A DNA stretch of 64,000 bases from an uncultured Planctomycetota bacterium. Its GTDB lineage: Bacteria; Planctomycetota; PLA2; JAEUHO01. The translations under genes and the position numbers were made by a program. The notes beneath the pieces are model-generated. The model did no database searches and had not been told where the DNA came from. It saw only the letters and a list, made by a program, of their open reading frames with translations. Below, piece after piece: positions 117 through 45,167 of the stretch (positions within the stretch are counted from its first letter, which is position 1; each line of letters begins with the position of its first letter). The stretch spans positions 224,001 to 288,000 of the forward strand of contig CAVVXN010000001.1 in the NCBI GenBank assembly GCA_963752285.1, given 5' to 3'.

Positions 117-3100
117 TCAGACCCCGGTCCGTCGGCGGTAGACGCGGGCCCGCGCTTCGCCGTGCGCTTCGACCAGCCGGTGGTCTACGAGCCGCCCCAA
201 CTCCCGGTTGACCGTGCGGGGCGAGACGCCGAGCTCGCGGGCGAGAGCGGGGGCGGCGAGCCAGCGCTTCTCGAGCAGCGTGAGGAGACGTTCCGACCGT
301 GGACCGCGCGCCGCGGGTTCGAGCCGCCGGCCGAGCGCCTTTCGGGTGAGGCGGGCCCGCTGCGCGATCGCGTTCTCGACCACGTCGGGCGGGACCGAAG
401 GTCCGTCCGAGAGCAGGGCGGCGGCGCGGAGCACGCTGTCGAGCTCGCGGACGTTGCCGGGCCACGAGTAGGTGGAGAGCGCCGCGAGGGTGTCGGGCTC
501 GAGGATGCGCGGCGGGTCGAGCTTCTCGAGCAGGTACGCGGAGAGGAGCGCGAGGTCTCCGCCGCGTTCGCGGAGCGGAGGCAGGAAGATCGTCACGACG
601 CTGAGTCGATGAAAGAGGTCCTCTCGGAAGCGGCCCGCCGCCACCTCGTCCGCGAGGTCCTGGTGGCTGGCCGAGACGATGCGTACATCGACCTCTCGCG
701 TGCGGGTCCCGCCTACCGGGGTCACGCGCTTCTCCTCGATCACGCGCAGGAGCGCCACCTGCATGGCGGGCGACATGTCCGCGACCTCGTCGAGGAACAA
801 CGTGCCGCGGTGCGCCCGGACGATGACGCCCATGCGGTTCCGGTCCGCGCCGGTGAACGCGCCACGGACGTGTCCGAAGAGCTCCGAGGCCAGCACGTCG
901 GGTGCGACGGCGCCACAGTTCAAGGGTACGAACGGACCTTGTGCCCGGCCGGACGCGGCGTGGAGTGCGTGGGCGATGCGCTCCTTCCCGGTGCCGGTCT
1001 CGCCGCGGAGAACGACCGCGCACCGAGACCTCGCGACGCGCATCACCTGGTCGATGACGCGGCGCCAGGGGCGCGAGCGACCGATCAGCCCCTCGCCCGC
1101 GAGCGCCGGCATCTCGGCGGGGCGGCGCCGCACGGCCTCGAGAGCGGTCCGGCTCGACGGGTCGGCCTTCCGCGTCTCGAAGAACCGGAGGACCGCGCGG
1201 ACGGCGCGGATCTCGCGCCTCGTGAACTTCCGGCGTCGTGCCAGGCACGCCACACCGTCGCCGATCGGCACACAGAGCACGCTGCGCGGCCGTCGCTGTT
1301 CCGGCCGCCAGAACTCGGGCCGCGGCCGGACGCCCCGCGGCCGAAAATGCCGCTCGCGCACGAGACAGTGGATCGTCCACGTCGAGAGCGTGTGCTCGGC
1401 CTGCGGCCGCATGTAGAGGTAGTCGCCGCGCCGGTAGTGGAAGAGCACCCACCCCCCGACCATCCGCGCGAGCTCCCGAGTCAACCGCCGCTCGATCTCG
1501 TCCTCCCGCCCCACACGCCCCGCCGCAATCAGCGCATCCAAGGCATCAATCACCCGCGCTGGGCGTGCGCGTCCACTCGTAACTGCAACCCGCCTAGCCA
1601 GCGCCCTGACACAAACAGGCAAATTCCGCAGCGCTGGGCCGTCGAAGCCGTGTGCCTTCGCCACTCGCTCACAACATGATCTGTAGTCCTCAAGAAGGGG
1701 TATGGATGGTTCCCGCCCAAATCGTCTCGAAAGCCCGGCCAACTTGACGTATGCATCCAGCCCACACGCCAGTGCACCGATGGCCGAAGCCAGGTCGGAT
1801 GCCCAAATGTGCTGGCGTGCCGCCGCGAGCGAGAGGAGAAGGTGTCTGGCCCACGACGGCTCACCGCGCGCCTCGCGGCTGAGGTACTGGCGGTACTTCC
1901 GGGGGACTGGTCGGCCTCTCCACGTGCTGCCGCACAGCCGCAGGAGCAAGCCCTCGCTGACGCTGGGCGCCTCCGGGCTTGCGAGTACCGGTGCCGCGGA
2001 GGACCTTGCTTCGCGGTACTGCGCCAGAAGAGGCGCCGGACTCGCCATCGCGTGCTCCGTGCCGGGAGAGTTCCGCAATCCGGGTGGGAGTACTCCAAGC
2101 GAGTGCAAATGCAGGGCGACGCGGCTCTCATCAGGCAACGACGCGGCCTTGCGCGCCAGACCCGTGAACCGGTTCTTGTCTAGTGCTTCGAGTACGCTGA
2201 GGTGGATTCGCAGTTCCGGTGTCATCGGGATGCGCGTCGAGCCAAACCGATGGGATTTGTCCAGAAGCTTGGCGCGCGTGGGATGAAGGCGATAGCCCTG
2301 ACCCGCTCGCTCCATGACGTCCACAATCAAGGACGCTCGAGAGCGTGAAAGGTGCCCGGCTCGGTGCTCCGAAACCGCGCAGTCCGTCGTGGCGTTCCAC
2401 GCGGACGATCTGATGCCAGCGAGTAATACTGTGCGCAAACCACGGTGGACAACACGAGTAATCTGCGTGCGTTCGAACTGCCACGCCATGCGTCTTCGAA
2501 ACGAGCGGGCCAGAGCTGCCATCTTCTTCAGGCCGGCGGCGCGGCAACGCACTTCCGCCCGCATTGCAAGTCGATGGCGATATGTCACCGGATGAGCCGA
2601 ATACGAGGCGGCGACCGCGAGCCCGTAGGCGGCGAAGGCTCGCATAATGAGCGCCGCGCCTGGCGGCGCCGAGCGCAGGTGTGTCCGGATGCCCGCGATC
2701 GTCGGCCGGTCTCGCTGCAGGATCGCCGCCAGAATCGCCTGCGCGTATGGAGATAGGCCACTCAAGTGGCGGTGAAGCTTGCCCGCTATCAATTTGTAGA
2801 CACTGCGCGCGATGCGACGCTGTCCATCTGTCTTAGGCAACATGACGACCAAGTGTTCAGCGATCTGCAGCAGTCGTAATTGTGAATCCGAACGCCGCGC
2901 GAGCCAGCGCAATTTGGCGAGGTACCCCTCGTGCTCTGCGTTCTGCCGCAGAAGGAATGAAGATGCGCTCCGGGATCTGCGTCGTCGCGGACGGTCCAGG
3001 AACAGCGTGCGCACAAACCGCAGGGTGGCCGGTGTGGGGTCGCAGTAGGTCAGCAGCATCGCGAGAGCCAAGGAGTGGGCCGGAACAGCAGAATTGATGC

Positions 3101-3302
3101 TGATCGCGATGACCGTGGGGGCGGGCCGGCCTCGCGCCCGCCTTCTCGACAGCTCCAGCGCGAGGGCCATGGCGCCGTCAGTCGCCTCCGGACGCGGGAT
3201 CACAACTCTGCGCCCGACGCGCCGGTTCGCCCCCGTTCCCTTATGGGGACCCCTCGGCCTACTCCCCGAAACCGCAACTAACAAGGGGCGAACATACATC
3301 AC
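117..3302 (-). CDS. Sigma54-dependent transcriptional activator (bEBP) with long divergent N-terminal region, degenerate GAF-like segment, AAA+ domain and C-terminal winged HTH
   Basis: 1061-aa ORF with Walker A GETGTGKE, ELFGHVRGAFTGA (GAFTGA at 846-863), Walker B LFLDEV, FREDLFHRL and WPGNVREL. SVLCVPI is GAF-like. The exact start codon is uncertain and the N-terminal ~590 aa have atypical codon usage. Confidence 0.88.
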   Translation of the reverse strand: MMYVRPLLVAVSGSRPRGPHKGTGANRRVGRRVVIPRPEATDGAMALALELSRRRARGRPAPTVIAISINSAVPAHSLALAMLLTYCDPTPATLRFVRTLFLDRPRRRRSRSASSFLLRQNAEHEGYLAKLRWLARRSDSQLRLLQIAEHLVVMLPKTDGQRRIARSVYKLIAGKLHRHLSGLSPYAQAILAAILQRDRPTIAGIRTHLRSAPPGAALIMRAFAAYGLAVAASYSAHPVTYRHRLAMRAEVRCRAAGLKKMAALARSFRRRMAWQFERTQITRVVHRGLRTVLLAGIRSSAWNATTDCAVSEHRAGHLSRSRASLIVDVMERAGQGYRLHPTRAKLLDKSHRFGSTRIPMTPELRIHLSVLEALDKNRFTGLARKAASLPDESRVALHLHSLGVLPPGLRNSPGTEHAMASPAPLLAQYREARSSAAPVLASPEAPSVSEGLLLRLCGSTWRGRPVPRKYRQYLSREARGEPSWARHLLLSLAAARQHIWASDLASAIGALACGLDAYVKLAGLSRRFGREPSIPLLEDYRSCCERVAKAHGFDGPALRNLPVCVRALARRVAVTSGRARPARVIDALDALIAAGRVGREDEIERRLTRELARMVGGWVLFHYRRGDYLYMRPQAEHTLSTWTIHCLVRERHFRPRGVRPRPEFWRPEQRRPRSVLCVPIGDGVACLARRRKFTRREIRAVRAVLRFFETRKADPSSRTALEAVRRRPAEMPALAGEGLIGRSRPWRRVIDQVMRVARSRCAVVLRGETGTGKERIAHALHAASGRAQGPFVPLNCGAVAPDVLASELFGHVRGAFTGADRNRMGVIVRAHRGTLFLDEVADMSPAMQVALLRVIEEKRVTPVGGTRTREVDVRIVSASHQDLADEVAAGRFREDLFHRLSVVTIFLPPLRERGGDLALLSAYLLEKLDPPRILEPDTLAALSTYSWPGNVRELDSVLRAAALLSDGPSVPPDVVENAIAQRARLTRKALGRRLEPAARGPRSERLLTLLEKRWLAAPALARELGVSPRTVNRELGRLVDHRLVEAHGEARARVYRRRTGV

Positions 3303-3389
3303 TCCGGATCATCCACTACCCGCGGAGTGCCGTGCAAGGCCTAAAACTACGGGCCCCACCCGCCAGAGGACATCTGGGTCCGGTGTTCA

Positions 3390-3437
3390 GAAATCTAAAC
3401 GCCCAAAGTTGAGATTTCGCGCGGCGTGTCCTATTCT
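3390..3437 (+). promoter_or_regulatory. Sigma70-type promoter TTGAGA-N17-TATTCT overlapped by an 11-bp inverted repeat (putative operator)
   Basis: -35 at 3409-3414 and -10 at 3432-3437. The inverted repeat GAAATCTAAAC (3390-3400) / GTTGAGATTTC (3408-3418) matches at 10/11 positions with a 7-bp spacer. Confidence 0.6.
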
Positions 3438-3494
3438 CTCACCACCTCGATGGGCGCTCGGTGCGTCGAGGAGTAGCACGTGGAGGGTGGCTCG

Positions 3495-3830
3495 ATGCGA
3501 AAGCTCGTGGCGCTCACGTTAGTGGTCGCCGTAGCCATAGCGCTGACGGCATCGGCGAAGGCTGGCCCGAGCCCGATGGGCGTGCGGTATCAGCACGACG
3601 GCTTCCTCGGGACTCTGAGTTTCGCCGAAGCGCAGGGGCATCTCTATATCGCGGAAGATTCGCATGGTCTCCCGGTCGGCACCGGGCCCATCCCCCTTCC
3701 GCTGTGGAGCGTGCCGACGCCCAACTGTGGGCCGGACAAGAACGGGACGATCCTACGGGTGCACATCCTCCCGGAGGACATCCTTGTCACCATCTCGGAC
3801 AACGACGAAGACTGGCGCTGGCTGCGCTAG
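3495..3830 (+). CDS. Small secreted protein (111 aa) of unknown function
   Basis: GGAGGG RBS at 3482-3487. MRKLVALTLVVAVAIALTASAKA is a classic Sec signal peptide with an AxA site. A promoter lies upstream and a hairpin downstream. Confidence 0.8.
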   Translation: MRKLVALTLVVAVAIALTASAKAGPSPMGVRYQHDGFLGTLSFAEAQGHLYIAEDSHGLPVGTGPIPLPLWSVPTPNCGPDKNGTILRVHILPEDILVTISDNDEDWRWLR

Positions 3831-3868
3831 CCACGATCCAAGTTCGAGATCCGCTTGGGCAACACTCG

Positions 3869-3892
3869 GGGCCGGCTCGGAAGAGCCGGCCC
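3869..3892. terminator. Hairpin between convergent genes
   Basis: GGGCCGGCTC-GGAA-GAGCCGGCCC, a perfect 10-bp stem with a GNRA loop, abutting the stop codon at 3893-3895. No U-tract. Confidence 0.55.
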
Positions 3893-6022
3893 TTACTCTG
3901 CGCCCGCCGATACGAAGCGCGCGAGTAGTTGGCTTGCCCGCTCCATGGGGAAGGGTTTCGCCAGAACCTCAGCAGCGCCCGCGGCTAGTGCCCTATTCGG
4001 ATCCACATCGCTTGCCCACCCGCTCATGAGAACCACCGGAAGGTTGGGGTGCAAAGCGCGCAACTGGCTGCACAGTTCAATGCCACTCATCCCCGGCATG
4101 CCAACGTCAGAAAGGACTACATCTGGCCTCTCCGCCCGAGCAATGCGAAGCGCCTCCTCGCCGCTCGTGGCCCGAATGACCCGAAAATTGCGGCGTTCTA
4201 GATAGGAGCACACCGGGTCAAGGACGGATGCATCGTCATCTACTACGAGCACCGTCCCTGATCCGGGGCGATCCTTCCGGGGCGCAGGCACATCATCGCC
4301 CCGGCCGGCCGTGGCGCGCTGAGCGGCCGGAAGGGAGAAGGTCACTACAGTTCCCTTTCCGGGTGGGCAGGCGAGGGAAATCCTGCCGCCGTGCTTCTCC
4401 ACGATTTGCTGGCATAGGCAAAGCCCGAGCCCTGTCCCGCGCTCACCCTTCGTTGTAAAGAATGGATCGAACACTCGCTCCCTAAGTTGCACCGCGATCC
4501 CACAGCCGTTGTCGCGCACGGTGACTTGAACCCGGCCGCCTCGCCGTGCCGCGGTAACGCCGATGCGGCCACCGACTTCGATCGCCTCAAGAGCATTTTT
4601 CAACAGGTTTGTCATCACCTCGCGGAGTTCCGTGGGGTCGCCTCGCACTTGAAGTTGGGTTTCACACCGAAGTTGGACAACGGCTGTCTGCTCGCTGCCG
4701 CCGCGCCCGCCGCGCCAAAGAGGGCGCAGAAGATCGATCGCGTCGCGACACACGTCCTCCATATTCAGCACACGGAAGTCATGTTGCCTTTGATTCCTGC
4801 TGAACGTCTGTAGCCTGCGCACAACCTCTGCCGCGTCGAGAGCGGCACGCTCTATTAGCGCCAAATCTGCTTGCGCCTGGCCTGCGAGTGAGCCAAGGCT
4901 CATCATCTGTACGCGCGCCAGTATGGACGTGAGAAGATTATTGAACTCATGCGCGACGCCACTACTGATTTCTCCAATGACGCGTAGACGTTCGCCCCTA
5001 ACAAGCCGGTCCTGGAGCGTCTTCAGTTCCAAGAACGACGCCTGGATGTTCTCGAGTAGCCTCGTGGACTCCAGAGCCGCAGCCGCTTGCTCGGCGAACA
5101 GTGAGAGGACTTCCAGGTCGATACGGTCGAATGCGATGGCCCGGTCGGTGTCCACATACAACACTCCGTACATGACATCATTGCGAAGCATTGGCACACA
5201 GAGGATCGATTGCCGAAGAAGCATAATGCTGTGAGCGCCGGCAAGTTCGTTCGGAGATAGTCCCTGTACCGAAGAGGAGTCCAGGCCGTCAGATGCAGGG
5301 CTAAGATTGACAGGGCGCCTGGTCGACCGGACCTTCTCGATCACCGTGTGGCTGAGGTCGCTTAGGCTGACCTGCTCGCCCGCCGAAGCGGCCCAGCTAC
5401 TGGCGCCAAGAGCGAGGGATTGAGATTCGTCGACCAGAACGACGCAGGCCCGCTGGGCCCCCATGATCTCGGTCATGTGGCCAGTCAGGCCGTCCAGTAG
5501 TTGTTTCAAGCCCCCGCCGGAGCGCATGGCGGCAGAGGCCTCAAGCACGCGCCGAAGCGCGAGGGCGAGACGCTGGTCCGGAACAACGGTGGACCCCTGG
5601 TCCACCAGTGCCTTGTGCGCAACCGCATGAAGGTCTAAGAGGCCTAGTTTCCTTGGAAGCGGCAAGCCGGACGCGGCAGAGAGGTCCTGGGCGGCTAGCC
5701 GAACTTCATCTGAGAGTCCGGTGCGCGTTCCTGCATGTTGAATACCAATGCGGTCCAGGGTGGAGACCGCGCTCGAGAACAAACTGGCGCGCACGCGAGC
5801 CGAATGGGGAGGGGTGGCTGCGCACATTGCGGCAAGAACTCTTGCGGCTAGCGAACGCAGATTCGAGGCACGCGCGAAAGCATCCAAAACAGGAAACAGA
5901 GCGCGGCGCACGCCGTCGGACCCGGACGCGTGCAGTGCGCAAGCAGTATTCGGCTGCAAGGCGCCCGTCCTGGCCCGCGGGTATTGCGGGGGCGGGGGGC
6001 CGACGCGCCGAGGAGGAATCAT
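3893..6022 (-). CDS. GAF-histidine kinase-receiver hybrid; C-terminal part of a frameshifted giant signalling gene (3893-9484)
   Basis: GAF SILCVPM...GVLYVD; H-box GVAHEFNNLL; N-box NLLKNALEA; G1 DNGCGI; F/G2 FDPFFTTK..GTGLGL; receiver VLVVDDD, LSDVGMPGMSG, MSGW, KPF. The annotated start is probably not real. Confidence 0.88.
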   Translation of the reverse strand: MIPPRRVGPPPPQYPRARTGALQPNTACALHASGSDGVRRALFPVLDAFARASNLRSLAARVLAAMCAATPPHSARVRASLFSSAVSTLDRIGIQHAGTRTGLSDEVRLAAQDLSAASGLPLPRKLGLLDLHAVAHKALVDQGSTVVPDQRLALALRRVLEASAAMRSGGGLKQLLDGLTGHMTEIMGAQRACVVLVDESQSLALGASSWAASAGEQVSLSDLSHTVIEKVRSTRRPVNLSPASDGLDSSSVQGLSPNELAGAHSIMLLRQSILCVPMLRNDVMYGVLYVDTDRAIAFDRIDLEVLSLFAEQAAAALESTRLLENIQASFLELKTLQDRLVRGERLRVIGEISSGVAHEFNNLLTSILARVQMMSLGSLAGQAQADLALIERAALDAAEVVRRLQTFSRNQRQHDFRVLNMEDVCRDAIDLLRPLWRGGRGGSEQTAVVQLRCETQLQVRGDPTELREVMTNLLKNALEAIEVGGRIGVTAARRGGRVQVTVRDNGCGIAVQLRERVFDPFFTTKGERGTGLGLCLCQQIVEKHGGRISLACPPGKGTVVTFSLPAAQRATAGRGDDVPAPRKDRPGSGTVLVVDDDASVLDPVCSYLERRNFRVIRATSGEEALRIARAERPDVVLSDVGMPGMSGIELCSQLRALHPNLPVVLMSGWASDVDPNRALAAGAAEVLAKPFPMERASQLLARFVSAGAE

Positions 6023-6512
6023 CGAGATGCTCTCTCAAGCGGGTGCGTCGGGCCCATAGCATCGCGCGATAGAGTGCGCGATACTGTGTATGCAGGGCGG
6101 GCCGTCGAGCTTGGGGAGTAGCAGAGAGCGTCACCGTGCCGCCCGCACCGGCCTCAGAAAGGTGCGAGAGGTAGTCGAGTCCGTCACGCTCGTTTTGGAG
6201 AAGTGCGTCTCGGTATCGGGACGCGCGTGAGAGGGACACTGTGTGCCGTTGACTGAGGCCTGCGTGCAGGTGTGCAAGTGCTGCGCTGTAGTAGTGCATC
6301 CCTCTGACATATAGGGGTGTGTTCTCGGCTGGGACGCCGCTAGAAAGCGGCGCCTCACGCGCTGCCGTTGCAGTCGTACGCAGCACTTCCACGTAGACCG
6401 ACATAGCTCCAAGAGCGGCGGCGAGTGGCGCGAGTTCGCGTGCGACCGCCGGTGCTTGATCGAACCTGGAAAACCGTTTCGCTACATGCCATGCTCGCAT
6501 GTACGCAGTCAT
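5706..6512 (-). CDS. Middle, TPR-like helical fragment of the frameshifted giant signalling gene
   Basis: This frame is open upstream to about 6650, reading ELVHAVLFASDCVGIAQRHGLTDTLIRALRELADAYDRQYRPDLAMTAY, which continues the TPR pattern of the upstream ORF. Confidence 0.55.
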   Translation of the reverse strand: MTAYMRAWHVAKRFSRFDQAPAVARELAPLAAALGAMSVYVEVLRTTATAAREAPLSSGVPAENTPLYVRGMHYYSAALAHLHAGLSQRHTVSLSRASRYRDALLQNERDGLDYLSHLSEAGAGGTVTLSATPQARRPALHTQYRALYRAMLWARRTRLREHLDDSSSARRPPAPAIPAGQDGRLAAEYCLRTARVRVRRRAPRSVSCFGCFRACLESAFASRKSSCRNVRSHPSPFGSRARQFVLERGLHPGPHWYSTCRNAHRTLR

Positions 6513-6583
6513 GGCGAGGTCAGGTCTGTACTGGCGGTCGTACGCGTCGGCAAGTTCTCTAAGAGCGCGAATGAGGGTGTCGG

Positions 6584-9484
6584 TTAGCCCGTGCCTCTGG
6601 GCAATGCCAACGCAATCGGAGGCGAAGAGTACGGCATGGACGAGTTCCCCCTCTTGGCGTGGATGCGGGCCATGTTGAGCGTGGTGAACGCAGCTCCGCG
6701 CACGTCTCCTAGTCGCTTGGCAAAGCGCGCAGCGCGGGCGAAGCTCCGCGTCGCCTCCCGACCGCGCTGCATTTGGGCCAGCGCAATACCTTGATTGTTA
6801 AGGATGCGGCTCTGCATTGAGCGGTCGCGTATGAGGCGGGCGTACTGCTGGGCCAGACGGAGGCAGCGAAGGGCCTGGGATGATCTGCGAAGCAGGAACT
6901 TGGAACGTGCGACTGCAGTCAGGTACTCGGCGCGCATGCGCAGAAAGGCGTGGTTAACGGGCGCCTGCACGCGAAGAGAGCGTCGGCACTCCCTCAGAAA
7001 GGATCGGGCCTCATCGATGCTACGTCGATCAAACGCGAGTGAGGCTCGTGCGATGAAGTACTTGGCAGCCAAGATCGCGTCGGTCGTAGTCGATGGATAC
7101 CAAGCCTCGAGTAGCGTCTCCGCGAGCGCCGGCTCCTCCGCGTCCTCCATGATGCGCGCTAGGCGGAGCGCTGAGTCCGGAGTGTCTGCGTCTGGGGTGA
7201 GGTGCGCAGCGAGGATCCGGGCTGGACCTAGGCCCTCGTGGCTTGAGGGGATGAGGGCGCACAGCACTCTGCGCGCCTCTGGGGATGCGAGAAGTGCAGC
7301 GTTCTGTGAGACGGCCGATACCAGCCGGGGCTGGAGGCGGGAGAGAGCTTTCGGATCTAAGGGCGGTTCATGTTGGGCGATCAGTTGAATGGCGTCGAAA
7401 TGGCGCCCGAGCGCAAAGAGGAGGATCGCGCGCTCAAGGCGATTCGAGATTGTGGGTGCCGACTCATAGGCGGAGAGGAGGGACTGGCGGGAGGCCTCCA
7501 GATCAAAGGCAGGGACCTCCGATCGAAGGGCGTCACGCAAGGCGGCGTCGGCGAGGGCACAACAGGGGCCTTGGTCGGTAGGAACGACAGAGAGAAGGGG
7601 CGTGGAGAAGACAAGGTGGCGAATCGGCGCATTGAGGAATACGCGCTCGAGAACCTGCATGGGCACACTGCCCTCAGCGGCGAGGAGCACCGTCAAAACG
7701 CTGCGGAGTAAAGGGCCCGCGTCAGCGACTGCGTTGCGCATGGAGGGTGCGAGGCGGGCTGGGACGTCATATTCTGGCAGGCACGACGTTTCCCAAATCC
7801 AATTCCCGTATCCTCCAGAGAGGTCGCCGCGTCTTGCTGCCGCTGCGGCGTAGTCGACGATCCGACCGGACTTGTGTTGTGTGAGTTGTGCAAGAGCTTC
7901 CCTGGGCGCCGGTCCCGCATGCTGGGGACCCAGCCGCGTCTCGATCAGTTGCCAGGCTTCCTGAGCTGACAAGGCGCCAATGTGGCATAGGACGTCTCCT
8001 GGAGACGATGTGTCATGAATAATTAGTGATTGCGTGTCTAGACCGCCGGCGTCCAGAGCAAGGACCAAGGGCGGCGGGGGCTCGGAGAGCAGGTGCTCCG
8101 TGCGCGAGAGCATTTCGCGCGACAGGGCGGCCAAGGCGTCCCGGGCTAGTTTTGGCAAGTCGGAGTAGTCGTCCACGAGGATCGCATATGCACCCTGGGC
8201 CGACGCCTGGATGGCCCTACGCACAAAGTACTCAATCGCGTGTCCAGCGGGCCAGGATGCAAGAGACCGCGCCCGTTGCTGTGCCAGTTCGGAGGGCTGT
8301 ACGCGCGATGCTAGGGTGTCGATAGAATCCAGCAGCGCGGCGATCGGGGACTCTTCACTCGGCCAATCGCGTCGACCAGAGAGATAGACAGTGGCACACT
8401 CGAGCAGGCGGGCTTGGTGGAGGAACTCGCGCACGAGGCGGGTCGCGCCGGAGCGTGGGGGCGCGGTGAGTATCAGTACGGAGTCTGCTCCGCGGCGGGC
8501 GCTGAGTCCAGCGACGCCCGTCGCTTGGCGGCGGAGGAGGGTGACCATCTTGCGGAAGCGGGTCAGGGCTTCCTCTTGGCCGATCAGCGGGCCGCTCTCG
8601 ATCCGGGCGTAGATCTCGGCGGGGCGGACTTCGGGAACCTCCCAAGACACGTGCTGGGCGAGCTGGAGCAGGATGGCTCGACCGTCCGAGGGGCGCTGGT
8701 TCGGGTCGCGGGCGAGTAGGGCGAGGATCAGGTCTTCGAGGGCGGTAGGGATGTCGTTTCGGAGCGCACTGGGACGGGGAGGAAGCTCCTCGCGCCGGCG
8801 GCGGAGCATGTCGGCCGCGCCGTCGTCGGGCATCGGGATCGCGTCCTGTCCCGTGACGAGGCGGTACGCGATCAGTCCGAGGGAGTAGAGGTCTACGCGG
8901 TGGTCGTGGCCCTGGTCCTCGGTGACCTCGGGAGCCATGTACAGCGGCGTGCCGCGCGCGACGCCCTCGACGGGCCCGACGCTCGCCAGGGCGCCGTCCG
9001 TGAGGATGAAGCGCGGGCCGTCCTTCGTCTCCTCGAGGATCCAGTTGGACGGCGTCACGTCGTAGTGGATGACGCCGAGGTCGTGCACCGCGCGGAGTAC
9101 GCGGGCGCCGTCCTCGAGGAATCGCCACACGAACTCGAACGGCTGGGGGCCGTCGAGGTGATCGAGGCTCTCGCCGTCCACGTAGCGCTGGGCCTGGAAC
9201 CAGGACTCGACCGTGGGCCCCCCTGCGGTCGTGTCGGCGGGAACCACCCCGGCATCGAGGACCTGGGCCCAGTTGGGGTGACGGAACCAGTGGAGGACGC
9301 GGGCCGCCTCCTCCATGAAGGCGTAGCCCTCGCGGGACGACTGGGTCAGCTTGAGGGCGACCTGCTCGCCCCCGCGCGCGAGGTCCTCGGCGAGGTAGAC
9401 CGTGCTGTGGGCGCCCTGACCGATGACCCGGCCGAGGCGATACCGACCGACCAGGATCTGGGTGAGGTCGGGATCGTTCGCCAT
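6584..9484 (-). CDS. Ser/Thr protein kinase-like domain + degenerate STAND/AAA ATPase + TPR; N-terminal part of the frameshifted giant gene
   Basis: YRLGRVIGQGAHSTVYLA, VALK, HYDVTPSN, GTPLYMAPE, DLYSLG; PLIGQEE; APPRSGATRL (Walker A-like); ILVDD; TPR-like SRILNNQGIALAQMQRGREATRSFARA. Confidence 0.85.
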   Translation of the reverse strand: MANDPDLTQILVGRYRLGRVIGQGAHSTVYLAEDLARGGEQVALKLTQSSREGYAFMEEAARVLHWFRHPNWAQVLDAGVVPADTTAGGPTVESWFQAQRYVDGESLDHLDGPQPFEFVWRFLEDGARVLRAVHDLGVIHYDVTPSNWILEETKDGPRFILTDGALASVGPVEGVARGTPLYMAPEVTEDQGHDHRVDLYSLGLIAYRLVTGQDAIPMPDDGAADMLRRRREELPPRPSALRNDIPTALEDLILALLARDPNQRPSDGRAILLQLAQHVSWEVPEVRPAEIYARIESGPLIGQEEALTRFRKMVTLLRRQATGVAGLSARRGADSVLILTAPPRSGATRLVREFLHQARLLECATVYLSGRRDWPSEESPIAALLDSIDTLASRVQPSELAQQRARSLASWPAGHAIEYFVRRAIQASAQGAYAILVDDYSDLPKLARDALAALSREMLSRTEHLLSEPPPPLVLALDAGGLDTQSLIIHDTSSPGDVLCHIGALSAQEAWQLIETRLGPQHAGPAPREALAQLTQHKSGRIVDYAAAAARRGDLSGGYGNWIWETSCLPEYDVPARLAPSMRNAVADAGPLLRSVLTVLLAAEGSVPMQVLERVFLNAPIRHLVFSTPLLSVVPTDQGPCCALADAALRDALRSEVPAFDLEASRQSLLSAYESAPTISNRLERAILLFALGRHFDAIQLIAQHEPPLDPKALSRLQPRLVSAVSQNAALLASPEARRVLCALIPSSHEGLGPARILAAHLTPDADTPDSALRLARIMEDAEEPALAETLLEAWYPSTTTDAILAAKYFIARASLAFDRRSIDEARSFLRECRRSLRVQAPVNHAFLRMRAEYLTAVARSKFLLRRSSQALRCLRLAQQYARLIRDRSMQSRILNNQGIALAQMQRGREATRSFARAARFAKRLGDVRGAAFTTLNMARIHAKRGNSSMPYSSPPIALALPRGTG

Positions 9485-9530: not shown

Positions 9531-9558
9531 CTATCGGCCTCCTCTTAGCCGGGCCTGA
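9531..9558 (-). promoter_or_regulatory. Sigma28 (FliA/WhiG)-like promoter TCAG-N16-GCCGATAG upstream of the kinase gene
   Basis: Near-consensus -10 element GCCGATAG 47 nt upstream of the ATG at 9484. Confidence 0.45.
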
Positions 9559-10298
9559 ACGGATGACGGTCCGGCTCTCGAGGCGACGCGTGCTCCCTCG
9601 ATCCTAGGACCGGGCGCGGCCCGGCGCACGCGTCGAGCTGGTCGGGTGCCAGCCGCGAGCGCACGCGCCCGGGCCGCCTGGATGGCCTCCATGATCCGCT
9701 CGACGTACGCCGTCTCCGCCTCGCGGTTGCCCGCGACGTCGGCGGGCGGAGGCGCCAGCGGCGCCCCGAAGGCCAGGCGGACGTGCGCGCGGCGGAACCA
9801 GCGGGCGCCCCGCGGCCACGTCTCGAAGTTCCCGGCGAGCCCCACCGGGACCACGGGGGCCCGCCCCTTGCGCGCGAGGATCGCCACCCCGCGCCGCCCG
9901 CGCCCGATCTTGCCGTCGCGGCTGAGCCTCCCCTCGGGGAAGATCGCGACGGGCTGACCCTCGCGGAGCAGAGCCACGGCGCGCCCGATCCCCGCTCGGG
10001 CCAGGCCGCCGCTCCCGACGGGGATGGCGCCGACGAGCTTGAAGAACCACCGGCCGGCCCAACGCCGGTAGAAGTCGTCGGTCATCATGAAGACGACCCG
10101 GCGGCGGATCACCAGCTGGAGGAACGCCGGGTCGAGATAGCTCGCGTGATTCGCGCAGACGATCGACGCTCCGCGCGGGAGGCGGGGCCGCGGGCCGATC
10201 GTGCGAACGAGGAAGAGTGGGCGGGCGAAGAAGAGGACGACCGCGCGGAGCGCCCCGTAGCCGAACTCGTAGACCGGGTTCCAGATGCGCCCCCACAT
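9531..10298 (-). CDS. plsC: Lysophospholipid (1-acyl-sn-glycerol-3-phosphate) acyltransferase family protein
   Basis: NHASYLD (HX4D), IFPEGRLS and APVVPV motifs. The start is chosen at MWGRIW; an alternative GTG lies at 10331. Confidence 0.85.
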   Translation of the reverse strand: MWGRIWNPVYEFGYGALRAVVLFFARPLFLVRTIGPRPRLPRGASIVCANHASYLDPAFLQLVIRRRVVFMMTDDFYRRWAGRWFFKLVGAIPVGSGGLARAGIGRAVALLREGQPVAIFPEGRLSRDGKIGRGRRGVAILARKGRAPVVPVGLAGNFETWPRGARWFRRAHVRLAFGAPLAPPPADVAGNREAETAYVERIMEAIQAARARALAAGTRPARRVRRAAPGPRIEGARVASRAGPSSVQARLRGGR

Positions 10299-10360
10299 GT
10301 CCGGGGGGCCCGGCAGACCGGGGGCGATCACCTGGGGTGCACGCGGACCGACGCGCTCCG

Positions 10361-11647
10361 CTAGTTCCCGTCGGTGGTGCTGGGAGCAGAGGTCGTGCCC
10401 GCCTCGGGCGAGCACCCCTCGTCGATGCGCTGCTTGAGGGCGAGGCCTTCCTTGATGAGGAGTCGCTTCTCTTCGCCGGACTCCAACATGTCCACCGCGC
10501 GCCGATAGAACTCGTACGCCCGGTGCGCGAGGTCACAGTCCTTCTCGCCCGTCAGCTTGAAGACGGTGTTGAACACGCGAGCCACCCCTCGCGTGGCGCC
10601 GAACAGATCGCGCTGTTGTGCGAAGTCCTTGTAGAGGAGGGTCACGCGCAGGTAGTGCAGCGCGGCCTGGTCGAGGAGCTCCCGCACCTTCTCGTGCGCG
10701 GTCTTCGAGCCCGCGGCGTTCGCCTGGAGCTGAGAAGCCTCGGTGAAGGCCAGGTCGCCGAGGCCGGTGTACACGCCCGCGAGCACGCCCTTGTCGGTCG
10801 CGGTCGAGGCCTCGTCGAGGATCTGCTCGTATTGCTTCTTCGCCTCGTCGGCCTTGTTCTGGTTCCGGAGGGCCTCGCCGAGCGACATGAGGATGCGGAA
10901 CCGCGGCACCTCGGCGAGCTCGTGGTGCGGAGCCCTGACGAGGTCGGTGAGGAGCGAGCGGTAGGCGTCCTCGGCGGCCGCCCACTTCTTGGGGCTGTCC
11001 GCGCCGAGGCTCTTGCTCAGGAGGGTCGCGAGGTACATCGCGCTGAAGTTGTCCCGCACGTTCATGTTCTGGATGTCACTGACGAGCTTCAGCGCCGCGA
11101 GCGCGTCGGCCAGCTTGCCCCGGAGCGCGAAGATGCGCGCACGGGTTTCCTGGGCCGGCCCGAAGTAGTACGTCTTCGGGTTGGCGGCGAGGAGGTCGTC
11201 GGCCGCCTTCAGGGTCGCGGCCTGGTCGCCGGTGTTCGCGAGGGAGAGCATCCGCTTGTAGAGCGCCTGCTCCTTGGCGAGACCCTGGAGCTCCTCCGAA
11301 GCGGCTCCGAACGCCTGCGCGGCCTCCGGCCAGAATGCGTTCTGGCCGTTCCGCTCGCCCTCGTTGAAGCGCTGGTTCGCGATCGTGTCGGTGAGCCAGA
11401 ACGCGGCCACGGCGGCAGCGTCGCCCGACGCGCCCGAGAGCTTGTACGAGTCGTAGCTCAGGTCGAGGTTCCGCTTCCCGCTGTCCTGGAGCTCCTGGTC
11501 GCTCGGCGGCGTGCCCCAAGGCGACTTGACGCTCTTCGGAAGGCGCGTCTTCCCGTCGCTGAGGTCGAGGATGTCGGCTCGCGCGATGGGCGCGAGGATC
11601 CCACCGAGGAGCGCCGCGAGGGCGGCGCCGAAGATGGCGGTGCGCAT
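10361..11647 (-). CDS. Secreted TPR-like helical repeat protein
   Basis: Signal peptide ending IARA; TPR-like LGEALRNQNKADEAKKQYEQIL and AALHYLRV; strong host codon bias. Confidence 0.75.
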   Translation of the reverse strand: MRTAIFGAALAALLGGILAPIARADILDLSDGKTRLPKSVKSPWGTPPSDQELQDSGKRNLDLSYDSYKLSGASGDAAAVAAFWLTDTIANQRFNEGERNGQNAFWPEAAQAFGAASEELQGLAKEQALYKRMLSLANTGDQAATLKAADDLLAANPKTYYFGPAQETRARIFALRGKLADALAALKLVSDIQNMNVRDNFSAMYLATLLSKSLGADSPKKWAAAEDAYRSLLTDLVRAPHHELAEVPRFRILMSLGEALRNQNKADEAKKQYEQILDEASTATDKGVLAGVYTGLGDLAFTEASQLQANAAGSKTAHEKVRELLDQAALHYLRVTLLYKDFAQQRDLFGATRGVARVFNTVFKLTGEKDCDLAHRAYEFYRRAVDMLESGEEKRLLIKEGLALKQRIDEGCSPEAGTTSAPSTTDGN

Positions 11648-11692
11648 GACGTTCGAAACCCCCTGGGAACGGGACGTGCGGGGCGAATCCGG

Positions 11693-11721
11693 AGGGTACA
11701 GGCCGTGGGATCGGCGGTCAA
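11693..11721 (-). promoter_or_regulatory. Sigma70-type promoter TTGACC-N17-TACCCT
   Basis: Correct 17-bp spacing, about 45 nt upstream of the ATG at 11647. Confidence 0.45.
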
Positions 11722-11842
11722 CCGCACCCGAGGCGGTTCGGGGCGGGTGGACCTCGGCGGGTCCCCGCCGCCGTCACCGGTGGTTCGAGGGCGTCTTCGG
11801 GGCGTCCGGACCGCCCGCGCGCCGGGCCGGCCGCGACCCGGG

Positions 11843-12682
11843 TCAGAGGCTGCCCACCTGGTGGAGCGCGAGGAGGTCCATGCTGAGGGCGACGCCGTAG
11901 TGGAGGAACCACCCGTAGAGGATCGTCTCGGTCCGCCACGAGAGGAGACCGAGCACGAGCCCCGCGCCGATCGCGCCCATCGCCTCGGGGAAGGGCTTGT
12001 AGTAGTGGATCATGCAGTAGGGCGCGATCATCACGAGCACGCTCGCCACGCCGATCCGACGCTTCAGGCCGAGCACGATGAAGCCGCGGAAGAAGAACTC
12101 GATCGCGAAGAACTGCAGGCAGTACACCGCCTCGAAGAGGAGGAAGTCCGCACCGAGGTGCCCGGGCATCGGCTTGTAGAAGGGATACGTCTTCTGGAAG
12201 TCCGCGCGCTGGCTCACGAGCCAGATCACGGGGAAGAACACGACGAAGAGTGTGAGATAGGTCCACGCGTCGCGCCCCGTACCCTTCAAGCGGATGCCGA
12301 GTCGGCGCGGCGAGAGACCGCTCGCGGCGCCGACGCACATCGGGATCAGCACCAGCAGGACGATCACCGAGAGGCCCCACCAGAGGTACGGCTGGAGCGT
12401 CTCCCATCGCGCGTCCGTGAGACCCGCGGGCCGCGGGAACCGGATGCCCATCATCCAGGTGATGCCCGGCGGAGGCGGGTTGGAGGTGATCTGCGCCTCC
12501 CGGAGGTGCCACCGCGTGTAGTGCCACGGCAGCCCGAAGAACTCGAGCAGCGTCAACACCACGGGAACCGTGACCAGGATCGCCACCGCGACGCGGTCGA
12601 GGGCCAGCAGGTCCCGTACGAGGCGGAGCGGGCTCGCGTGCCCCGGCGGCGGGGCCGGCGGCGGCCCGGGTCGATCGTTCAT
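11843..12682 (-). CDS. CPBP (Abi/CAAX) family intramembrane glutamic protease
   Basis: Multiple TM segments; [17 protein letters not shown] and GWFLH motifs; ATGA overlap with the upstream gene. Confidence 0.85.
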
Positions 12683-13554
12683 TCCACGGGCTCCGCCGGG
12701 TCGTGCACCGCGCGCGGGCGCGTCGAGGCCGCCTTCTTCAGGGTCTCGTCGTCGAGGCGCTTCCGACGCAACCCGTCGAGACATCCGCGCCGGTGCGCGA
12801 CGAGCTCCGCGACCACCGCCACGGCGATCTCGCCGTGCGTCTGCGCTCCCAGGTCGAGCCCGATGGGCGCGTGGAGGCGCGCGAGGTCCACGCCCCCGAG
12901 CCGGCCCGCGTCGCGGAGGCGGCCGAGGAGCGCGCGGACCTTCACGCGACTCCCGATGAGCCCGACGTACGACGCGGTCGTATGCAGGGCGAAGTCCGTG
13001 CACTCGAGGTCCATCGCGTGCCCACGCGTCACGACGACGCACGACGTCGAGGGCGTGACCCTGAGCTCGCGGAAGGCTTCCTCGAACGTGGGGCGCGCCA
13101 CGACCCTCCGGGCGCTCGGAAACCGTTCGACGTTCGCGAACGCCTCGCGGTCGTCCACGACCGTCACGGCAAAGCCCGCGCGTGCTGCGATGTCGGCGAG
13201 GTCGCGGCTCACGTGTCCCGCGCCGAAGACGACCACCGCGGGCACCGCGATCGGCTCGATGAAGACCTCGATCTCGCCGCCGCAGAGCAGCCCCGCCGTC
13301 CCGGTGGCGGACTCGGTCAGGCGGAGTCGGACCCGGCGGGGACGGTCCTCCTCGATGACCTCGCGGGCCGCGTCCACCACCTCGGCCTCGACGCAGCCGC
13401 CGCCGACCGTCCCGAGGAAGCCACCCGACTCCCGGACGAGCAGACGCATCGTCTCCCGTCCGGGCGTGCTCCCCCGGGTCGAGATGACAGTGGCGAGGGC
13501 GCCGCGCTCTCCCTCGGCCCGCATGCGGGCGACTTCCTCGAAGATGTCCAGCAT
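12679..13554 (-). CDS. xdhC: XdhC/CoxI family molybdoenzyme accessory protein
   Basis: [45 protein letters not shown] and APIGLDLGA motifs. Confidence 0.9.
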
Positions 13555-13628
13555 CGTCGGACCGGATGCTAGCCGACCGCCTGCCCCCGGGGCCAACGCG
13601 GCCCCGGCCCGACCGTATGTTCCGCGGA

Positions 13629-15020: not shown

Positions 15021-15097
15021 GGACCGCGCGGGTCCCCGCCGGGCCGGGCGCGAGCGCGGACCGGGTGCCCGACGCGGCGATCCCCGCGTGCCGCGCG

Positions 15098-15763: not shown

Positions 15764-15923
15764 GGCTTCTCTCCTGCTCGGGTTCGGGGATCCGACGCGC
15801 GGGCCGCAGCCGGGCCGACGGGGCCCGCGGGCCCGGTGGCGCCTGCGCGACCTCGCCTCGACGGCGGCCGAACCGCTCGGAGGCATGATCCTACGGGGAG
15901 GGGGACCGGCCGGGAACGCGGGT

Positions 15924-16520: not shown

Positions 16521-16701
16521 GCGCGCGATCCTATCCGGGACGCGACCGCGGCGCCCGAGCGGTGCCTTCCCCCTTCGGCGGGGCTCGCGAAGCCGGTATC
16601 CTCCCCCGGCGCTGCCGCGAGGAAGGCCCGGGACGGGGCCGAGCGGCCCGGGGTGAGGCTTCCCGGCCGTCAGCCTCGACGGAGAGTGCCGGGTCCTCGC
16701 C

Positions 16702-38834: not shown

Positions 38835-38954
38835 CCCCGGCGGTCCCCCTCGGACGGGTCTCGGCGCGCGCGCCCCGGTCGGATGACCCCCGGGGGCGCC
38901 CGGGGCGGTACACCGGTCGTTTCGGCCGGGGATCCGGCCCCGGGAGACGCCCCG

Positions 38955-40988: not shown

Positions 40989-41081
40989 GGGCCGGGCCCT
41001 TGGGTCGGGATGCCCTGGCCGGGACGGCCGGGACTGGCGGAGAATGACCCGACGGCCTTGCGGCCGGGAACAGGAGATCCC

Positions 41082-45161: not shown

Positions 45162-45167
45162 TCCGCC

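Follow-up and report, generated by a model that had tools for sequence, protein, structure and literature searches.

Conserved partnership of an enlarged dual kinase and a receiver-less sigma-54 activator beside a new family of small secreted proteins in Planctomycetota

The genes of the locus

The locus comprises two very large cytoplasmic sensors which lie on either side of a gene for a small Sec-exported protein. It was analysed within a window of 64,000 nucleotides, the whole stretch of DNA under study. The genes and features of the locus and its adjoining flank are as follows.

117 to 3302, minus strand: sigma-54 enhancer-binding protein of 1061 aa (PF00158, E 9.1e-63 over the full model; AAA_lid_14, E 2e-13)
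1593 to 3185, minus strand: helical N-terminal sensor region of this activator (aa 40-570), poorly conserved and low in third-codon GC (GC3)
3390 to 3437, plus strand: putative regulatory region in front of the small gene, in which the inverted repeat GAAATCTAAAC/GTTGAGATTTC (3390-3400 / 3408-3418) overlaps a sigma-70-like promoter
3495 to 3830, plus strand: small secreted protein of 111 aa with a signal peptide (aa 1-23), an Ig-like beta-sandwich of 88 aa and a C-terminal DWRW tail
3893 to 6022, minus strand: dual kinase, piece 3, with GAF (aa 172-318), HisKA (351-411), HATPase_c (461-567) and receiver (591-696) by Pfam
5988 to 5999, minus strand: frameshift site 2, two C runs on the coding strand
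6003 to 6647, minus strand: dual kinase, piece 2, in the other frame, continuing the TPR array over 215 codons without a stop
6647 to 6651, minus strand: frameshift site 1, a G5 run on the coding strand
6584 to 9484, minus strand: dual kinase, piece 1, with a Hanks-type kinase domain (aa 15-266; PF00069, E 3.8e-21) and TPR_12
9531 to 10415, minus strand: PlsC-type acyltransferase (PF01553, E 5.5e-21) of the conserved flank, GC3 about 0.9
10361 to 11647, minus strand: secreted TPR-like protein, a gene of the conserved flank

The initial annotation had described the gene at 3495-3830 as divergent from a sigma-54 activator and convergent with a kinase gene. Both orientations are confirmed, the frame which the small gene faces being the one with the GAF-HisKA-HATPase-REC series at 3893-6022.

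The small gene is real as well. Its product has a hydrophobic N-terminus (Kyte-Doolittle 19-residue mean 2.17) with a cleavage-type site AKA/GP, and a homologue is found in the same place and the same orientation in a related locus from a Planctomycetota MAG, L001. The family comprises 53 representatives at E<=1e-3, which are nearly all 89-123 aa long and are matched over most of their length. The mature protein is modelled by AF2 as an eight-strand beta-sandwich with a mean pLDDT of 94.1 and no segment below 50. Pfam and NCBIfam gave no family for the window protein. A Foldseek search against the PDB gave no match at E<=0.001, the top ones being Ig-like domains of GH2 glucuronidases with TM 0.40-0.47, and the best score in the ESM Atlas was 0.85, which is under the meaningful level. 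This family of small proteins is new and unnamed. In 43 aligned members the C-terminal DWxW[D/E] tail is conserved with W107 and W109 nearly invariant, and conservation covers the whole domain, not the tail alone. Six of these 43 proteins weakly match DUF6383 (best E 9.5e-5). Upstream of the gene one promoter-like site, the sigma-70-like TTGAGA-17-TATTCT at 3409-3437, is found where 0.1 are expected, and the small gene is probably transcribed from its own sigma-70-type promoter.

The convergent gene had been described as a single kinase-STAND-TPR-GAF-HK-REC gene. The domain series could be verified, with the STAND part being STAND-like only, whereas the single ORF could not, as two frameshifts split it in three pieces. 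On the minus strand the reading path runs from 6584-9484 to 6003-6647 and on to 3893-6022, changing frame at the G5 run and then back at the C runs. Both L001 and a relative of 1864 aa, P0072, stay in frame across the position homologous to the first site. The second site lies between the last aligned residue of frame B (about 6044) and the first of frame A (about 5974). The pieces are colinear on P0072 (residues 1-955, 962-1160 and 1188-1859) and belong to one gene. Among 72 kinase matches at E<=1e-10, the best 46 are single-ORF proteins of 1,787-1,878 aa which carry Pkinase, GAF, HATPase_c and receiver domains, and most of them TPR and HisKA as well.

The kinase domain of piece 1 shows K45, HYD142, N147, D163-G and APE. 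The HYD and DGG motifs are atypical and are invariant in the family (42-sequence alignment). Behind the kinase domain follow a STAND-like region, whose lysine-less P-loop GSGATR lies at aa ~341-349, and then the TPR array. A Walker A motif GxxxxGK[ST] is absent; the window reads PPRSGATR, and the same 42-sequence alignment shows G346, T348 and R349 to be conserved, without a lysine. PF13191 is absent from the window kinase at E<=0.01 and precomputed in some relatives only. The region may thus be called STAND-like by its position and its Walker B context only. Piece 3 matches GAF_2 (E 7.6e-14), HisKA (E 4.6e-5) and HATPase_c (E 1.3e-28). With a 19-residue hydropathy window no membrane segment reaching 1.6 could be identified in the kinase pieces or in the activator, the maxima being 1.53 and 1.56. 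Homopolymer runs are a classic site of consensus errors, and the two kinase frameshifts are most likely of that kind.

The activator has the architecture of a sigma-54 enhancer-binding protein (EBP), with a full-model AAA+ domain and GAFTGA in the translation. An all-helical part (aa ~40-570) is followed by a GAF-like domain (~600-715) with the family signature RPRPEFWRPEQRRP, the AAA+ domain (739-905) including GAFTGA, the lid and a C-terminal HTH; a receiver is absent. HTH models stay under the Pfam cut-off, and the C-terminal segment is conserved in 17 homologues. To these the identity is 20-36% over aa 40-570 and 50-66% over aa 570-1061. The AF2 model (mean pLDDT 63.7) shows helices from 40 to 568, followed by an alpha/beta domain (600-715) whose pLDDT is 85-92. 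For the N-terminus, a low-confidence model, Foldseek gave no PDB match at E<=0.001 and only generic alpha-solenoid or TPR-like ones, and the ESM Atlas gave no usable match. All named NCBIfam equivalogs are far under their cut-off, and this receiver-less activator represents a new subfamily. Its targets could not be read from promoter elements: a GG-N10-GC element is absent from both strands of the intergenic region 3303-3494, matches to the sigma-54 consensus occur window-wide at chance (120 observed, 121 expected), and the candidates in L001 are weak, with 5-6 of 11 specified positions matched.

Conservation of the trio and comparison with known systems

Scanning the genome collection revealed one related locus, L001, with 37-54% protein identity. 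carB, an htrA-like gene, the genes for a CPBP protease and the TPR protein, plsC, the kinase gene, the small gene and the activator gene follow in the same order in the window and in L001. Identities to L001 amount to 41% for the small protein, 37-51% for the kinase pieces, 42% for the activator, 52% for the adjacent plsC product and 54% for the syntenic TPR protein. At closer distance the small proteins are 76-82% identical and the kinases 67-77%. The best protein relatives of the window proteins are 35-45% identical. In both loci for which DNA is available (window and L001) the small gene is found beside the other two genes. Four of the 17 activator homologues match a kinase homologue in source and in exact contig size (13,764; 37,969; 95,297 and 262,388 bp), so that their co-location is deduced from equal sizes and not from sequence. 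Counted with the window and L001, the two genes are found together on six contigs, and activator and kinase belong together. The initial annotation had called the module strain-specific. That label could not be upheld, as at the depth that can be examined the locus lies among the same housekeeping genes in a genome whose proteins are about 50% identical.

In the ORFs examined over 1-13.7 kb the Pfam domains are limited to kinase, TPR, GAF, HK, REC, AAA+, acyltransferase, Rce1-like and XdhC. The Rce1-like/CPBP protease lies 8 kb off, beyond plsC, and is part of the conserved housekeeping flank. As stated before, no integrase or transposase domain is found among the ORFs scanned in this region, and tRNA and Rfam scans of 1-14 kb yielded zero genes or families. 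Marks of a genomic island (integrase, transposase, tRNA) are thus absent from these scans, and the L001 locus lies in the same chromosomal neighbourhood. Against the anti-phage defence proteins of PADLOC no full-length match was obtained; the matches are confined to the generic part of the kinase (domain at aa 8-280) and to the activator's AAA+ domain.

PMC2176072 describes a class of dual kinases which have an STK domain at the N-terminus, GAF, and a histidine kinase at the C-terminus. The HstK-type dual kinases treated there (cyanobacterial cbSTKIII; Anabaena Alr2258/HstK, Pkn40/Pkn41) resemble the present kinase in being one cytoplasmic polypeptide. Their definition in that text, i.e. STK, at least one GAF, HisKA and HATPase in one protein, applies to the present kinase, which is a single polypeptide in 46 relatives; the window gene is frameshifted twice in this assembly. 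In contrast to the HstK type, the kinase described here is about 1,860 aa long, adds a STAND-like region, TPRs over about 600 aa and a receiver at the C-terminus, shows the HYD/DGG motifs, occurs in Planctomycetota MAGs and has a sigma-54 activator as partner. The activator shares with receiver-less EBPs of the NifA/FhlA/NorR type the GAFTGA AAA+ domain, the C-terminal HTH and a GAF-like fold just upstream of AAA+, but differs from them in that the GAF-like domain is preceded by helical repeats which belong to no known family and span about 570 aa. A description of the trio of kinase, activator and small protein was not found in the literature, in agreement with the term undescribed used earlier. 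The partnership of an enlarged HstK-like dual kinase with a receiver-less sigma-54 activator is conserved, and no description of it was found in the literature either.

Third-codon GC across the locus

A switch in codon usage within two ORFs had been reported and is confirmed: a block of low GC3 extends from about 1514 to about 8400-8800, and the reading frame is intact at both switches. The borders were placed by maximum-likelihood change points.

1475 to 1544 (support), best 1514, no strand: left border of the block, within the activator ORF at codon 596 (log-likelihood gain 30.9)
8398 to 8806 (support), best 8785, no strand: right border of the block, within the kinase ORF at codon 233

At the left border the GC3 of the activator changes from 0.70 towards the N-terminus to 0.90 towards the C-terminus. 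At the right border it falls from 0.94 before to 0.71 after, stepwise and more gradually than at the left one. The in-frame values for GC1/GC2/GC3 are 0.69/0.52/0.69 in the block (2,233 codons), 0.76/0.50/0.90 in the arms (795 codons) and 0.74/0.49/0.95 in 16 other genes (11,154 codons). The outer modules are host-like, as had been claimed, and in the block synonymous positions only are shifted AT-ward, GC1 and GC2, which determine the amino acids, being host-like. In a count by 300-bp bins, from which the two at the borders (1201 and 8401) are excluded, all 23 bins with starts at 1501-8101 show a highest-phase GC under 0.80, compared with 5 of the 188 outside the block. The claim that the variable halves of the two sensors share one low-GC block is correct as to the block; it does not hold that only variable halves are included, as the conserved GAF, histidine-kinase and receiver domains also lie inside. 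We considered whether low GC3 is a mere trait of poorly conserved parts and rejected this, since the histidine-kinase core is conserved yet low in GC3.

The same depression is found in L001, where GC3 amounts to 0.69-0.78 in all six locus segments and to 0.81-0.91 in all seven flank genes. The low-GC3 block is a property of the locus, and the homologous locus of a distant genome is also depressed. Low expression alone is unlikely as the cause, because just 5 of the 188 bins outside the block are under 0.80. According to PMC11879095, mutation is AT-biased and recombination rate is positively related to genic GC in 119 of 146 species. As for what lowers GC3 here, our leading guess is that recombination is reduced or that alleles were replaced. 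Sub-genome GC at one chromosomal site in more than one lineage is also known from enterobacterial O-antigen clusters. Here, however, synonymous positions only are affected, and the genes are orthologous and colinear instead of being replaced by unrelated genes. A search of the literature on comQXP or pherotype loci and GC content gave nothing useful.

A proposed regulatory module and its rival readings

To the reading we prefer we give about an even chance: the trio would be a regulatory module of long standing which a Planctomycetota-like lineage has inherited vertically, neither strain-specific nor a mobile cassette. Its first part is the cytoplasmic dual kinase, about 1,860 aa in length, which is related to the cyanobacterial HstK type but larger. 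It is composed of an atypical Ser/Thr kinase, the STAND-like region without a P-loop lysine, the long array of TPRs, and GAF, HisKA-HATPase and receiver domains. The second would be a dedicated sigma-54 activator. As this protein has no receiver domain, its control must pass through its own helical and GAF-like N-terminus, and the neighbouring dual kinase may exert it by Ser/Thr phosphorylation or by TPR-mediated binding. The third part, the small Sec-exported Ig-like protein, may serve as an extracytoplasmic product or accessory of the module and not as a diffusible pheromone. As the most probable cause of the low GC3, the force which keeps GC3 high elsewhere, recombination-linked selection or biased gene conversion, would act weakly here. 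Recombination tracts entering the window genome's locus from either flank would have got no further than the two conserved outer domains. The trio offers a concrete entry into the signalling of Planctomycetota, a phylum with poorly known regulatory circuits, and in both readable loci the gene between kinase and activator belongs to a new family of small secreted Ig-like proteins. The drop of GC at synonymous positions only, with its intragenic borders and orthologous recurrence, may be the more general point. Since it recurs at a distant orthologous locus, it is a natural case in which to test whether GC-rich bacteria maintain their high GC3 by recombination-linked selection or gene conversion, or by mutation, and loci that are recombination-cold or allelically diverse could be flagged in one genome by their GC3 depression.

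The initial annotation had proposed a pherotype-like module for quorum sensing or kin recognition, i.e. a hypervariable signal-plus-receptor cassette which is exchanged or diversified among strains between conserved arms. The signal would be the small protein or a peptide of its DWxW[D/E] tail, and the sensor the TPR array and/or the helical region of the activator. Several observations speak for such a cassette: the low-GC3 block is single and contiguous with both borders intragenic, a conserved small exported protein lies between two sensors in both loci, and its C-terminal tail is conserved in the 43 aligned members. TPR arrays are the peptide-binding modules of RRNPP receptors, and hypervariable loci, O-antigen clusters for instance, are known to have a persistently low GC. 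The enrichment of frameshifts in two independent assemblies could, in addition, mean mixed alleles in populations. Bacillus comQXP, Staphylococcus agrBDCA and the RRNPP systems likewise have a gene for a small exported product beside sensors, compositional borders within genes or a TPR array. The locus differs from them in its product, which is a folded Ig-like domain, in having no processing gene, in its non-membrane sensors and in the lack of an RRNPP architecture. Three of the four defining features of the pherotype reading fail. In place of the short unstructured precursor of comQXP and agr a pre-protein of 111 aa is found, whose mature form is a confidently folded 88-aa beta-sandwich. The ORFs examined over 1-13.7 kb contain no dedicated maturation or modification enzyme of the ComQ or AgrB type; among 34 ORFs Pfam revealed neither a gene for maturation, modification or export nor an importer of the Opp type, and an Opp-type transporter is also absent from 26 other window ORFs scanned. 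Where a membrane-embedded receptor histidine kinase would be expected, the hydropathy maxima of the sensors remain at 1.56 and 1.53 compared with 2.17 for the signal peptide; without a predicted membrane segment neither sensor can meet the secreted folded protein directly. An RRNPP system would combine a TPR receptor carrying an HTH or phosphatase domain with a pro-peptide and an importer, whereas the TPRs here are inside a kinase-STAND-GAF-HK-REC protein. The small protein, moreover, does not diverge faster than its neighbours at either of two evolutionary distances, conserved GAF, histidine-kinase and receiver output modules lie inside the block, and the locus is syntenic between genomes just about 50% identical. 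Co-folding of the small protein (aa 24-111) with the activator (aa 40-570) and the kinase TPRs (aa 600-941), in which each of the three chains was given its own alignment, gave a score of 0.01 and a mark of 0.32, without controls, and counts neither as support for binding nor as evidence to the contrary. The GC3 pattern as such is compatible with diversification or exchange between conserved arms; the cassette as proposed is nevertheless quite unlikely. A modified form, in which a trio widespread in Planctomycetota would be a recombination-cold, allelically diversified cassette for kin or self recognition, with the folded, Sec-exported Ig-like mini-protein and its conserved DWxW[D/E] tail as extracellular cue or co-factor and a protein in place of a peptide as signal, would account for persistently low GC3 in two distant lineages and for the intragenic borders, and it appears very unlikely to us.

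Other readings concern the origin of the block alone. The middle 7 kb could have been acquired from a related lineage of lower GC3 by homologous recombination, with crossovers located within the conserved kinase domain and the GAF/AAA+ region and with no signalling specificity implied. This lateral replacement of alleles, which we regard as rather unlikely, agrees with the sharp left border (70-bp support interval) inside a conserved stretch and with the reading frame and domain order being kept over both borders; and as GC3 is 0.69-0.78 throughout the L001 locus, low-GC3 donor alleles do exist. Yet a donor-like sequence was not found, and the block proteins have best relatives of only 35-40% identity, no closer than those of the arms; the right border is gradual, and GC1 and GC2 of the block are those of a high-GC host. 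The latter also argues against a chimeric assembly, in which the block would stem from another organism of the same sample with lower GC3, joined at conserved kinase and AAA+ sequences. The recovered relatives are MAG or metagenome records and the window is assumed to be possibly likewise, the left border is sharp, and the frameshifts are concentrated in the block, all of which would fit a mis-join. Both joins, however, keep the frame and the exact domain order of one gene family, an independently assembled genome is lowered in GC3 over the same locus, and organisms 0.25 apart in GC3 would presumably lack the long near-identical DNA for a mis-join. A chimera appears very improbable to us.

The module might finally be decaying in both lineages, with relaxed selection and pseudogene formation letting GC3 drift to an AT-biased mutational equilibrium. 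GC3 is indeed low at both loci, and frame changes are numerous: two are found in the locus of about 7 kb compared with 1-2 unverified candidates in about 55 kb elsewhere in the window, and at least five in the 9.5 kb of the L001 locus compared with none seen in the L001 flank genes. In the window, homopolymers are rarer in the locus (1.58 versus 2.59 per kb), and this frameshift enrichment in both assemblies despite fewer homopolymers is not predicted by plain random consensus error. Against decay, to which we attach a low probability, stands the complete lack of in-frame stops in the 2,233 block codons, where about 60 would be expected for random sequence of the same base frequencies. The window also keeps the family invariants K45, HYD, N147, DG and APE as well as GAFTGA, its histidine-kinase core is 60-72% identical to relatives, and both of its frameshifts fall in homopolymer runs. 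The L001 genes, too, have intact relatives, P0019 and P0072, which are 67-82% identical to the L001 versions.

Genes of the locus and their relatives

The locus comprises a sigma-54 activator, a small secreted protein and a dual kinase. The ORFs in the first 10.5 kb are as follows.

117-3302, minus strand: sigma-54 activator of 1061 aa; Pfam sigma-54 AAA+ domain (E 9e-63), lid and weak HTH matches
3495-3830, plus strand: small protein gene (111 aa), an ORF without Pfam or NCBIfam family
3893-6022, minus strand: kinase ORF; Pfam GAF, HisKA, HATPase_c and receiver
5706-6512, minus strand: ORF, one of three minus-strand ORFs beyond the small gene
6584-9484, minus strand: kinase ORF of 966 aa; Pfam protein kinase domain (E 3.8e-21) and TPR
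9531-10415: plsC-type acyltransferase

The 966-aa kinase ORF encodes out-of-frame residues after ...NMARIHAKRG. From a G5 run (6647-6651) onwards the TPR sequence is read in a second frame, up to two C runs (5988-5999) where the first frame is regained. No stop codon interrupts the three pieces, which align colinearly with residues 1-955, 962-1160 and 1188-1859 of P0072, a relative of 1864 aa. A kinase search limited to longer proteins gave 72 matches at E<=1e-10. The best 46 of these, 1,787-1,878 aa long, contain kinase, GAF, HATPase_c and receiver domains; TPR and HisKA are present in most of them and AAA_16 in some. Several are labelled as Planctomycetota MAG proteins. The long single-protein relatives and the colinear tiling therefore indicate that the normal state is one gene of ~1,860 aa, and the two homopolymer frameshifts are most simply read as consensus errors. 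The kinase-STAND-TPR-GAF-HK-REC gene of the initial annotation is thus not a single ORF in this assembly but lies in three pieces separated by two frameshifts.

In an alignment of the window kinase with 41 relatives, K45, H140-Y141-D142, N147, D163-G164 and A184-P185-E186 are invariant; the kinase core is atypical but conserved. HYD replaces HRD and DGG replaces DFG (window aa 140-164) family-wide. The P-loop of the 'STAND' segment reads GSGxTR without lysine in the window (aa 341-349) and the 41 relatives, so that this segment lacks the Walker A motif expected of a STAND NTPase. The invariance of these three motifs suggests that they are functional despite their departures from the canonical form. 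No membrane helix is predicted in any kinase piece. The closest described class are the cyanobacterial dual kinases HstK and cbSTKIII, which, according to PMC2176072, combine an N-terminal Ser/Thr kinase, GAF and a C-terminal histidine kinase. The window family is a new, larger variant of that class, extended by a receiver, a STAND-like region and ~600 aa of TPR array.

The activator contains GAFTGA and no receiver, and is therefore not a classical response regulator. Its N-terminal 700 residues retrieved 17 homologues. These are 20-36% identical to it in aa 1-570 and 50-66% identical in aa 570-1061. The AF2 model built from the 18-sequence alignment (mean pLDDT 63.7) consists of helices at aa 40-568 followed by a better-defined alpha/beta GAF-like domain at aa 600-715; Foldseek gave no significant match and the ESM Atlas none. 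The activator represents a new subfamily. Its GAF-like domain (window 1158-1505) carries a near-invariant RPRPEFWRPEQRRP, found in 18 of the 18 aligned members, which is possibly a ligand-binding or partner-binding signature. Four of the 17 homologues share their source and an identical contig size with a dual-kinase homologue (13,764; 37,969; 95,297; 262,388 bp), which we take to mean that both lie on the same contig; the 13.8-kb contig implies near-adjacency.

A word-based search with the small protein returned only itself. A homologue could be identified by tblastn in L001, a related locus of a Planctomycetota MAG, at the same position and in the same orientation (41% identity over 71 aa). 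The profile of these two sequences, run against 1.84 billion representatives, revealed 53 relatives at E<=0.001, of which 13 reach E<=1e-10. Their length is 89-123 aa in nearly all cases, and the match spans most of it. Forty-two of them were aligned with the window protein, leaving out 11 fragments, longer or giant proteins. Every sequence of the alignment carries a signal peptide and follows the pattern GVxY..G.L..NA.G..F.A.D..G..V..G...P..N.GPD..G..L.V.V...D.DWxW[D/E] up to the C-terminal end. The small secreted gene of the initial annotation is thus real, and its product represents a new family whose C-terminal tail is distinctive. AF2 predicts an eight-strand beta-sandwich (pLDDT 94.1) without significant match in the PDB, where Ig-like domains come nearest (TM 0.40-0.47), and the two giant proteins among the profile matches contain Ig-type repeats. 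By this model the product is a folded exported domain and not a peptide-pheromone precursor.

Conservation and codon composition

The genome scan returned one related locus, L001, with the complete arrangement. Identities between L001 and the window are 54% for the TPR protein, 52% for plsC, 37% and 39% for the first and middle kinase pieces, 51% for GAF-HK-REC, 41% for the small gene and 42% for the activator. The CPBP/Rce1-like protease, the HtrA-like protease and carB follow in the same order in both. The neighbourhood of the locus is therefore a conserved one of housekeeping genes, and vertical inheritance is most likely. Domain scans agree with the initial annotation in that integrase and transposase are absent from the locus, and no tRNA was found there.

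Within this neighbourhood the CPBP/Rce1-like intramembrane protease (window 11843-12799, minus; L001 6863-7717, plus) is syntenic and adjoins the gene of the secreted TPR protein. Identity between the two genomes is otherwise ~50% but reaches 87% over the C-terminal 47 residues of this protease. The window has three HtrA/trypsin-PDZ-type protease genes in 64 kb (13566-15020, 38883-40988 and 41010-42002), two of them in tandem.

A switch in composition within the activator and kinase ORFs had been noticed in the initial annotation, and it is confirmed here. GC is very high in the window, 0.68-0.80 per kb, except for one clearly lower stretch of 0.61-0.65, in the following called the block. Best-phase GC is below 0.80 in all 23 bins of 300 bp within 1501-8400 and in 5 of 188 elsewhere, two border bins being left out. 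In-frame GC1/GC2/GC3 is 0.69/0.52/0.69 in the block (2,233 codons), 0.76/0.50/0.90 in the two outer arms of the activator and kinase ORFs (795 codons) and 0.74/0.49/0.95 in sixteen other genes (11,154 codons). All codons ending in A or T are more frequent in the block, by factors of several to more than ten. Composition changes sharply at the left border, at activator codon 596 (coordinate 1514, support 1475-1544), and in steps at the right one, whose best estimate is 8785 (support 8398-8806). Both keep the reading frame. The switch is genuine, and the window has no other of its kind. In L001 the six locus segments have a GC3 of 0.69-0.78 versus 0.81-0.91 in seven flank genes; there the arms are low as well, and the borders are the ends of the three-gene locus. 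The most unusual feature of the locus is this locus-specific GC depression at synonymous sites only, which has borders inside genes and is found again in a distant genome.

Origin of the low GC3 and of the frame changes

In its GC1 and GC2 the block resembles a high-GC organism, and the shift is confined to synonymous positions. Muto and Osawa reportedly related genome GC to the GC of the three codon positions. By that relation a donor with a GC3 of 0.69 would be expected to have much lower GC1 and GC2, which makes import from a low-GC organism unlikely. Neutral decay is also unlikely, because no stop occurs in 2,233 codons and the catalytic motifs are retained. GC3 does not simply follow protein conservation, since the histidine-kinase core is 60-72% identical to its relatives yet lies inside the block, and low expression alone is an improbable cause given that 183 of 188 bins outside the block exceed 0.80. 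Because GC3 is low at this site in both lineages, which share its chromosomal context, we favour a locus-specific weakening of whatever maintains high GC3.

In most bacteria, according to PMC11879095, higher recombination rates go along with higher genic GC and mutation is AT-biased; its authors put the relation between recombination and GC down to selection, not gene conversion. If the middle segment of the locus seldom recombines, the observed pattern would result, and in the window lineage recombination tracts from the flanks would reach only the conserved outer domains. As the main alternative, a related lineage may have supplied a low-GC3 allele that replaced the middle. Both readings are compatible with allelic diversity in the population.

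In both assemblies frame changes cluster in the locus, even though it has fewer runs of at least 5 identical bases per kb than the rest (1.58 vs 2.59 in the window, 1.58 vs 2.54 in L001). The L001 locus (10001-19515) has at least five, at positions other than those of the window: in the kinase (frames 2 to 1 to 3), the small gene and the activator (1 to 3 to 1). Its flank genes read through (carB, 1168 aa; htrA-like, 692 aa; TPR; plsC). Intact relatives of the L001 proteins exist for the small protein (P0019, 76-82% identical) and the kinase (P0072, 67-77%). Mixed alleles or lower depth could have lowered the consensus quality of the locus, which would fit a cassette exchanged between conserved arms; real decay would fit relaxed selection.

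Outside the block, one or two frameshift candidates were found in ~55 kb. An alpha-2-macroglobulin-like giant protein is split at ~53.1 kb (48169-53091 and 53172-56978, plus), with the bait-region domain in the first ORF, A2M/TED/MG10 in the second and an overlap of ~97 nt between the stop-to-stop frames. It is probably another frameshift, otherwise a genuine two-gene arrangement. A further one is possible at ~46 kb, where two high-GC3 PHP-domain ORFs overlap (44821-46227 and 45998-46858, minus), the upstream one with the first 66 PHP positions only.

Proposed signalling role and control regions

The initial annotation regarded the locus as a pherotype-style module of a small secreted signal and two giant sensors. 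Three of the four features that define comQXP- or agr-type cassettes have no counterpart here: these cassettes have a short peptide precursor, whereas the product here is a predicted folded domain; no maturation enzyme lies beside the small gene, and no membrane helix is predicted in the sensor kinase. The fourth feature is hypervariability among close strains; at the two evolutionary distances covered, conservation of the small protein equals or exceeds that of its neighbours. The sensors are cytoplasmic, a folded secreted protein of 9-10 kDa cannot reach them without an importer, and none was found nearby among the window ORFs scanned. We consider the pherotype reading very improbable.

The trio is conserved, with dual kinase and activator co-located on six contigs. 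In our working model, the dual kinase would integrate cytoplasmic cues via its TPR and GAF parts, control the receiver-less activator by its Ser/Thr kinase domain or by direct binding, and run a separate His-Asp branch via its own receiver. The small exported Ig-like protein would be inherited together with the two regulators as an extracytoplasmic product or accessory, with a sigma-70-type promoter of its own. We give this model as a whole roughly even chances. No description of such a trio was found in the literature; the anatomy of the locus is solid and partly new, while its more exciting interpretation is unsupported.

The 192-bp divergent intergenic region contains a sigma-70-like site, TTGAGA-17-TATTCT, at 3409-3437 (1 found, 0.1 expected), overlapped by an 11-nt inverted repeat. 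GG-N10-GC is absent from both strands of this region, and sigma-54 consensus matches across the window occur at chance; the small gene is therefore probably not the target of the activator. Between the convergent ends of the small and kinase genes a GC-rich hairpin, GGGCCGGCTC...GAGCCGGCCC, was seen by eye at 3864-3893; the terminator scan did not call it, the T run being absent. In both genomes (window 3390-3437, L001 ~16100-16140) GAAATCT/AGATTTC-type half-sites occur where the divergent promoter region is richest in AT; their arrangement differs, and they form a candidate operator.
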